From IMG/VR virus record IMGVR_UViG_2728369554_000005: DNA of 12,733 nucleotides, one strand, 5' to 3'. Every line of letters begins with the position of its first letter. Within the stretch, counting starts at the first letter, position 1. The stretch is from a virus (lineage: Duplodnaviria > Heunggongvirae > Uroviricota > Caudoviricetes). Below, one piece after another: positions 2,569 to 2,821 of this stretch. The translations under genes and the position numbers were made by a program. Below the pieces are notes generated by a model. It was not told where the DNA came from, made no database searches, and worked only from the letters and a program-made list of their open reading frames with translations.

Positions 2569-2761
2569 CTACTATCCTCCTCCCCGAGGGGGCATTTCAG
2601 TCTTTTTCTCATTAATCGTTACCTGAAAGGCGGAAGAAAAAGTCCGTTCTTTGGCCCTAAATTACTTCATAATTTATGTCCATGCAAAATCTGATTTCCA
2701 ACTCACATAATAACCTGATGATACACTTGAAAACCTGATAACATCAGGTTACTATGCGCCT

Positions 2762-2821
2762 GTGAAAAAATCTTCACGTTTTATTCCTTGCCGCCCGCGT
2801 TTCCCAACGCGGGCTTTTTTT
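2762..2821 (+). ncRNA. Candidate ~60-nt small RNA (promoter, two hairpins, intrinsic terminator)
   Basis: Sigma70-like promoter TTGAAA (2727-2732), 17-nt spacer, TACTAT (2750-2755). Predicted start near 2762. Hairpin gtgaa/ttcac (2762-2777), then the terminator hairpin at 2793-2814 plus T-run. No ORF. Antisense to the late transcript. Confidence 0.3.
2793..2821 (+). terminator. Rho-independent terminator (plus-strand orientation)
   Basis: GC-rich stem gcccgcg (2793-2799) / cgcgggc (2808-2814) with loop tttcccaa, followed immediately by 7 T (2815-2821). On the minus strand the hairpin is followed by ggcaaggaat, so it is a poor terminator for the toxin/late transcript. Confidence 0.7.

Follow-up and report, generated by a model that had tools for sequence, protein, structure and literature searches.

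A predicted 60-nt small RNA of the EcOnc08/21/42 family, antisense to the late operon of a pertussis-like-toxin prophage

The gap between toxin and holin genes in a lambdoid prophage carries a short plus-strand unit that is probably the gene for a small Hfq-dependent, trans-acting regulatory RNA of the EcOnc08/21/42 family. The unit lies in a 12,733-nt stretch of Caudoviricetes DNA (IMG/VR record IMGVR_UViG_2728369554_000005), referred to here, at its full length, as the window. Judged by its sequence, it is a new copy of a known but functionally uncharacterized prophage small RNA (sRNA) family; its predicted short form, its toxin neighbor and its natural deletion alleles are modestly new. The most likely role of the RNA is to regulate host mRNAs in trans, and not to set the timing of lysis.

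Results

Gene context of the unit

The window consists of the late region of a lambdoid prophage, with the genes on the minus strand. Annotation of an identical RefSeq locus places antiterminator Q at ~4367-4753, a 'subtilase family AB5 toxin binding subunit' (toxin B) at 3646-4053, a 'scabin-related ADP-ribosyltransferase' (pertussis-like toxin A, EcPltA/ArtA type) at 2879-3610, and a class II holin, the first lysis gene, at 2114-2329, with YdfR, lysozyme, and Rz annotated beyond the holin. The late-strand order is therefore Q, toxin B and A (EcPlt/ArtAB type), a 549-bp gap, and the holin. Toxin A matched PDB 4Z9C chain A, the structure of E. coli ArtA/EcPltA, with E = 1.6e-97, and the accessory pair downstream of Q (2879-4065, minus strand) is a pertussis-like AB5 toxin. 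Carriers of the toxin prophage were isolated from cerebrospinal fluid, blood, cattle, pig, and poultry. Two runs of N in the window, at 5765-5900 (136 bases) and 8668-8735 (68 bases), presumably represent masked sequence, and the former breaks up an ORF with a KilA-N domain.

The gap extends from the toxin stop at 2879 to the holin start at 2329, and the sRNA unit lies inside it. The toxin A stop codon is 58 bp past the U-tail of the predicted RNA, which lies upstream of the holin, ~430 nt from its start, and is perfectly complementary to the late transcript. Since the 3' flank of the toxin gene begins 1-2 nt past the U-run, the sRNA terminator marks the boundary of the toxin cassette.

Other elements occupy the same gap. 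A second plus-strand sRNA-like unit at 2441-2570 has TTGACA at 2441-2446 and a long-loop terminator (CCCGCCAGCA...TGCTGGCGGG then TTCTTTTTT; fold -26.9 kcal/mol, z = -3.1). No other block of the gap is as well conserved: it is ~83% identical in ~1,400 E. coli genomes, among them remnants on ColV plasmids next to iss. The unit resembles EPEC PasA in position, orientation, and a 'GCCAGCA' terminator arm, with no significant sequence similarity found between the two. On the late-gene strand, ~30 nt upstream of the holin ATG, there is a terminator-like hairpin at 2358-2394 (minus strand; AGGCCATCAG...CTGATGGCCT then TTTTTTCTTTC; -17.3 kcal/mol, z = -3.8) that is conserved in relatives. It could stop read-through from the toxin into the lysis genes in lysogens, and it accounts for weak look-alike matches to SgrS, Qrr, and MicA. 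Two prophage remnants, L003 and L004, keep the block 2359-2725; one is on an IncF/ColV-type plasmid, adjoining iss and iroB, and one is in a chromosomal island, adjoining pap genes. Different IS elements cut L003 and L004 within 1-2 nt of each other (window 2725-2726), which is 1-2 nt before the -35 of the sRNA.

Anatomy of the predicted transcript

Direct reading, promoter and terminator scans, and folding recovered the promoter, 5' hairpin, and terminator that an earlier note on this DNA had described. The predicted -35 hexamer TTGAAA (2727-2732) and -10 hexamer TACTAT (2750-2755), both on the plus strand and separated by 17 nt, gave a 9/12 match in the promoter scan. Four promoter-like sites were found in the region against 3.9 expected from shuffled sequence. 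Because such promoter and terminator motifs occur at chance level, the case for an sRNA rests on homology and comparative evidence. The thresholds of the scanner are conservative, as it missed the validated AsxR promoter.

The predicted RNA runs from G2762 to 2821 (plus strand), which gives 60 nt with a fold of -21.6 kcal/mol and z = -5.1; its 5' end is a prediction. It comprises a 5-bp 5' hairpin, GUGAA-AAAAUC-UUCAC (2762-2777), a single-stranded linker of 15 nt (2778-2792), and a Rho-independent terminator with a U7 tail (2793-2821), the presumed Hfq-binding 3' end. The terminator stem (2793-2801/2806-2814) has nine GC-rich base pairs and a 4-nt loop, followed by T7 at 2815-2821. Read directly on the minus strand, the terminator has no T-run. 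The terminator of subtype B, described below, contains a G-U wobble that is tolerated on the plus strand only, which favors plus as the RNA strand.

The earlier description of the transcript as having no ORF is not strictly correct, since a mechanical ORF list includes a 40-codon GTG ORF at 2762-2884 (plus strand); it stands in the sense that no coding ORF is present. The 40-codon frame reads through the terminator and is disrupted by a 7-nt indel in the commonest relatives, and we therefore rejected it as a gene. A minus-strand ORF of 24 codons with a good Shine-Dalgarno sequence was likewise rejected, its frame being unconserved: all changes relative to subtype B are non-synonymous, and in subtype A the frame stops after two codons. 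Comparison with subtypes A and B found no conserved ORF or ribosome site opposite the sRNA. A predicted plus-strand non-coding RNA of ~60 nt between toxin and holin, antisense to the late operon, thus holds as first described, and it is homologous to Hfq-bound RNAs.

Kinship with EcOnc08/21/42

A distant BLAST search with positions 2695-2830 as query matched 2746-2821 in ~1,100 of 5,426 complete E. coli genomes. Local BLAST aligned 2747-2821 with positions 1,179,936-1,180,019 (minus strand) in prophage Sp4 of strain Sakai, and identity to Sp4 EcOnc08 was ~79% from the -10 to the U-tail (79.8% over 84 nt in BLAST). The Hfq-CRAC peak of EcOnc08 in EHEC O157:H7 Sakai was reported at 1,179,938-1,180,010 on the minus strand, and EcOnc08, EcOnc21, and EcOnc42 were treated as one family with a northern band of ~271 nt (Tree et al. 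2014, PMC4104026). The EcOnc08 sequence is also found 3' of stx1B in Sakai Sp15, and stx1AB has been described as 'bookended' by EcOnc42 (Sy et al. 2020). A 2021 review listed the target of EcOnc08/21/42 as unknown. The EPEC E2348/69 sRNA 'E2348C_1409.E2348C_1408.IGR', of 182 nt (1,444,797-1,444,978, minus strand, prophage PP6), was annotated as new with the remark 'Homologues identified in EHEC (EcOnc08/EcOnc21/EcOnc42)' (Pearl Mizrahi et al. 2021, PMC8550237); the genomic sequence at that position is of subtype A.

Subtype A is the form of Sakai, EPEC, and most Stx phages and has a 7-nt longer linker and a 4-bp 5' hairpin (TGAA/TTCA). Subtype B occurs in ~110 genomes (e.g., L002) at 84-87% identity, with the same promoter geometry, and has a 5-bp 5' hairpin. 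The window belongs to subtype C. A aligns clearly with B/C only from about the -10 onward (window ~2746) and over a few bases at the 3' end of the spacer. Upstream of ~2746 the window contains another conserved block, and it has neither the sequences that form the 5' part of the long forms nor the esterase gene.

We built a covariance model, R1, from 11 distinct subtype A and B sequences, excluding the window. It matched window positions 2759-2821 (plus strand) with 69.1 bits (E = 1.3e-14), had no second significant match in the window, and gave the AsxR locus 9 bits only. The family varies too little to reveal covariation: a G-U wobble and, in a cryptic copy, a mismatch were the only informative changes. 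An Rfam scan of the window gave no match at gathering score, and a permissive scan returned only generic terminator look-alikes (mmgR, SgrS, and Qrr). A 15-mer search of genome contigs gave, among the matches listed, chance matches in unrelated phyla only.

Like the family, the window unit has the homologous 3' module (linker, seed, and terminator), a seed complementary to the target motif, and, on the strand opposite the late operon, a terminator with a U-tail that follows an accessory (moron) gene on its 3' side. It lacks the 5' part that lengthens the transcript to 182 to ~271 nt and runs antisense to the leader or start of the esterase gene, which is a matter of transcript form and not a published family criterion. 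In EHEC, the long form extends over the beginning of the esterase gene downstream. The EHEC northern probe AATAATATCCGACAGTAATCACTCTGCGCAATAGC sits exactly on the predicted short-form promoter and could therefore detect the long form only. The window unit also lacks a convergent STnc100-type partner directly downstream: such a partner was found with RF02076 at 114-186 bits in L002, L005, L006, and L007, which represent subtypes A and B, and was absent from window 2822-2878 in the Rfam scan. Elsewhere in the window, at 12374-12596 (plus strand) and 9.5 kb from the usual STnc100 site of the family, a sub-threshold RF02076 match (41.2 bits, E = 6e-6; gathering score 47) includes both the conserved CACCGGGAGGCACCCGGCACCA core and a terminator of its own.

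Promoter variation was compared across the family. TTGAAA with a spacer of 17 nt is found in the window and in two other genomes, and the three other subtype C copies examined have TTGCAA with 18 nt. The window form arises from a 1-nt deletion (within 2727-2733) that brings the predicted promoter nearer consensus. Subtype B has TTGCAA-18-TATTAT, and subtype A has TTGCGC-18-TATTAT; the AsxR allele has the same TTGCGC-18 arrangement as subtype A. The primary 5' end of AsxR was mapped by RLM-RACE (Tree et al. 2014, PMC4104026), and the subtype A -35 is the one that drives this mapped transcript. Each subtype supplies TTGNNN 17-18 nt before the -10 despite differing upstream DNA.

A conserved putative seed and the published partners of the EPEC homologue

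RIL-seq in EPEC found the sRNA always as the second RNA of the chimera, as is usual for sRNAs, and the chimeric fragments came from its last ~35 nt (Pearl Mizrahi et al. 2021, PMC8550237), a part that it has in common with the window. The partners listed were the cfa 5'UTR (767 chimeras), the dppA 5'UTR (197), pcm (118), perA (30), tir (29), espC (26), a LEE gene (16), and emrA (15), with a common motif, GGCA(A/G)GG, opposite the stretch of the sRNA just 5' of its terminator (PMC8550237). The motif carriers named are cfa, dppA, pcm, and tir.

The window RNA presents CCUUGCC at 2786-2792, a putative seed that is the exact complement of this motif and is unpaired in the predicted fold. To avoid selecting on the seed itself, we sampled the family again from an anchor outside it, in the 5' part. 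Every true family copy retained CCTTGCC, across 19 distinct downstream sequences, and the positions that varied lay in the linker, in the loop of the terminator, at the last base of the stem, and in the U-run. Predicted pairing of the linker with the cfa 5'UTR site, UCCUUGCCG/CGGCAAGGG, reached -15.5 kcal/mol; the pairing is short, a shuffled linker equaled this value in 6% of trials, and the result is therefore consistent with targeting and not proof of it. This value comes from a run of linker against target, as duplexes of the full-length RNA gave meaningless long-range pairings.

A palindrome and octamer repeats in and near the predicted promoter

As first reported, the promoter spacer contains the palindrome AACCTGAT-aac-ATCAGGTT (2732-2750), and the octamer AACCTGAT occurs once more upstream of it (2712-2719, plus strand), as a third copy. 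The arms, at 2732-2739 and 2743-2750, form 8 bp across a 3-nt gap. All three octamer copies of the window fall inside 2712-2750, against 0.42 expected, and at least three copies occurred in 3 of 200 shuffles. The upstream copy is kept in the remnants L003 and L004, and subtype B has AACCAGAT instead. The palindrome is thus real and locally unusual, and it is poorly conserved. In subtype B, the nearest homologue, the arms AATCTGGC/ATCGGATT are complementary at 5/8 positions as DNA. Subtype A and the AsxR allele have a different palindrome, which overlaps the -35 and resembles a late-sense terminator.

As RNA, the window palindrome folds with -7.7 kcal/mol on either strand, and the subtype B equivalent, AATCTGGCaacATCGGATT, with -3.3 kcal/mol as plus-strand RNA versus 0 on the minus strand; with two sequence types, this strand-specific folding settles nothing. 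By eye, the palindrome fits none of the sites for LexA (CTG-N10-CAG), FNR (TTGAT-N4-ATCAA), Fur, or CRP. The earlier reading of a palindromic operator is accordingly sound for the palindrome and unproven for the operator: the nearest homologue preserves the complementarity of the arms only in part, the commonest subtype differs upstream, and no regulator site was recognized. An operator role is possible but unsupported.

Distribution and natural deletions

A query spanning the junction of sRNA and toxin matched 26 complete genomes, one of which, a subtype B locus without the toxin, was left out. The unit is present in 19 of the remaining 25 and cleanly deleted in six (PMV-1, ST95-32, FDAARGOS_1298, N56, GCU-H1, and 2022E04-002). 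The missing segment of ~86 bp (2739-2824) takes out the -10, the entire RNA with its terminator, and the greater part of the palindrome, between flanks that are 99-100% identical. Subtype B is continuous across this stretch, which indicates that the deletion is the derived state, and the six genomes that carry the toxin prophage without the unit show that it is not required for prophage carriage. Conservation in related prophages, on which the earlier note had made its reading depend, is hence mixed: the sequence is conserved in ~1,100 E. coli genomes and deleted in 6 of the 25 closest relatives. Such losses mean that the unit could be decaying. The EcOnc08 family is also carried by 57 sequenced phages, mostly Stx2a-converting, in which no sRNA is annotated.

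The AsxR site in Stx2a phages

In an O157:H7 Stx2a prophage, the family match lies ~277 bp 3' of stx2B on the opposite strand, and AsxR was reported '282 bp 3' and antisense to stx2AB' (Tree et al. 2014, PMC4104026). We considered whether the unit is AsxR itself and rejected this: the position fits, but neither the window nor that Stx2a locus contains the published sequences of AsxR, AgvB, or EcOnc03. The conserved 3' block of AsxR/AgvB, AGUAUCUCAUGCnnUUGCCCGAACCCAyUCGGGCUUUU, had no match in the window with up to three mismatches. Rfam models RF02702 and RF02703 had no match in the window either, a result that says little since there was no positive control: neither model was reported in any scan, and no verified AsxR locus was among the scanned sequences.

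A true AsxR locus (L008) and the locus of another O157:H7 Stx2a phage (L006) have both flanks in common and differ in a cassette of ~140 bp. The flank on one side has the GCGCAGTTGCGC segment that supplies the -35, and the flank on the other side has the body of the convergent sRNA. Identical flanks around differing cassettes indicate that a single site is occupied by either of two alternative alleles, AsxR or the EcOnc08-type RNA. The L006 and L008 cassettes also replace the 3' end of the convergent STnc100/EcOnc27 RNA.

Discussion

We propose that in a lysogen the predicted sigma-70 promoter TTGAAA-17-TACTAT would start an RNA near G2762 and that the intrinsic terminator would end it at 2821, giving ~60 nt. 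The terminator hairpin and U7 tail would bind Hfq, and the unpaired linker would offer CCUUGCC for pairing with GGCA(A/G)GG sites in mRNAs of host and virulence genes, such as pcm, tir, and the 5'UTRs of cfa and dppA. Hfq binding, expression, and partner mRNAs are taken, for the window copy, from the published work on its homologues; we infer that this copy is expressed, where its RNA starts, and in which direction it regulates.

Complementarity to the late transcript makes an effect in cis after induction possible, and we rate it as secondary. The earlier note had suggested modulation of lysis timing or of toxin mRNA 3' processing. On this view the RNA would pair with the late transcript, and the duplex would trigger RNase III cleavage or interference. 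The pairing would be perfect, 58 bp away from the toxin stop codon and ~430 nt before the holin start. The antisense orientation is common to all family members and AsxR, and the long EHEC form overlaps the esterase gene start. However, the RIL-seq partners of the homologue are trans mRNAs with the common GGCA(A/G)GG motif and not the adjoining late genes, nothing conserved that could be translated lies opposite the RNA, and the six near-identical prophages that lost the unit are still carried. The late transcript of a lambdoid lysogen should, moreover, stop at tR', upstream of the toxin, and would therefore not reach the sRNA region. Dispensability fits an accessory trans function better than core lysis control; we find a cis-antisense role improbable and the suggested link to lysis timing or toxin mRNA processing unsupported. 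It is still less probable, and indeed very unlikely, that the RNA is an anti-sRNA (sponge) of the AsxR/AgvB kind, which would titrate or destabilize a core-genome sRNA and leave mRNAs alone. Its site, orientation, predicted size (51-60 nt), and promoter layout are those of AsxR, to which the family is an alternative allele in Stx2a phages; UUGCC just before the terminator also occurs in AsxR, AgvB, and EcOnc03; and dppA, whose GcvB site AgvB mimics, is among the RIL-seq partners. Yet the conserved AsxR/AgvB 3' block is missing, the family model scores the AsxR locus at 9 bits only, and the significant RIL-seq partners listed for the homologue are all mRNAs, with no sRNA among them.

The unit might instead be an inactive remnant or a mere terminator, a 3' module left by insertion of the toxin cassette or by recombination, with fortuitous hexamers and a hairpin that stops stray plus-strand transcription from the holin side. 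Promoter-like matches are at chance level, the detected homologues are longer and their 5' parts are missing in the window, the STnc100 partner is missing, the unit is deleted in 6 of 25 relatives, and the second plus-strand promoter/terminator unit at 2441-2570 makes plus-strand transcription in the gap plausible. Against this, subtype B retains the promoter geometry in ~110 genomes at 84-87% identity, the 1-nt deletion of the window brings its promoter nearer consensus, and both linker and seed are conserved upstream of the stem, where a bare terminator has no need of them. We regard a remnant as unlikely and favor a functional, trans-acting sRNA gene.

A joint reading combines several of these elements. 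Interchangeable sRNA cassettes would travel with toxins, here as a seed module with its own promoter and palindromic operator that links toxin prophage and host and also cleaves the late transcript. It rests partly on the finding that AsxR-type and EcOnc08-type RNAs are alternative alleles between identical flanks in Stx2a phages, and we hold it to be a long shot. If it were true, some regulator would switch a 60-nt RNA that ties carriage of the toxin prophage to control of membrane lipids (cfa) and peptide uptake (dppA), and after induction the RNA would also cut the toxin-lysis transcript.

The analysis places a previously unannotated 60-nt unit in a prophage sRNA family that occurs in about one-fifth of complete E. 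coli genomes and in many Stx phages, with Hfq-binding and RIL-seq support and no Rfam match in our scans. It extends the family beyond Stx phages to the pertussis-like-toxin prophage of extraintestinal, bovine, and porcine isolates, and it indicates that the published EHEC northern probe could not have seen a short form. The 19 genomes with the unit and the six with a clean 86-bp deletion offer natural, isogenic-like controls.

Comparison with known prophage sRNAs

PasA and PasC of EPEC (Pearl Mizrahi et al. 2021, PMC8550237; Zhu, Shabalina & Storz, 2026 preprint) are likewise Hfq-dependent prophage sRNAs that are antisense to late genes, adjoin the holin, and have a seed at or overlapping the terminator arm. 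The similarity is confined to the 3' arm of the terminator and the U-run. We rejected homology to PasA/PasC of E2348/69: R1 gave PasC a weak 23.8 bits, and pairwise alignment was no better than generic. STnc100 (RF02076), with PasD, EcOnc05, and EcOnc27, is the usual convergent neighbor, back to back with the EcOnc08 family; it differs in its opposite strand and unrelated sequence, and it is missing beside the window unit.

AsxR, AgvB, and EcOnc03 resemble the predicted RNA as Hfq-binding RNAs of 51-60 nt that are antisense to the late operon at the same site, but they have no detectable sequence relationship to the EcOnc08 family. They act via a variable 5' end on the sRNAs FnrS and GcvB, whereas the EcOnc08 family contacts mRNAs with a seed beside the terminator.

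Relative to EcOnc08/21/42 itself, the window unit differs in its predicted length of 60 nt, against detected RNAs of 182 to ~271 nt with a 5' part antisense to the esterase, in the 7-nt linker indel, and in its neighbor, a pertussis-like toxin in place of Stx or an esterase. It shares with this family the CCUUGCC seed, the terminator, the antisense orientation, and a site just 3' of a toxin or accessory gene, which in Sp15 is Stx1.
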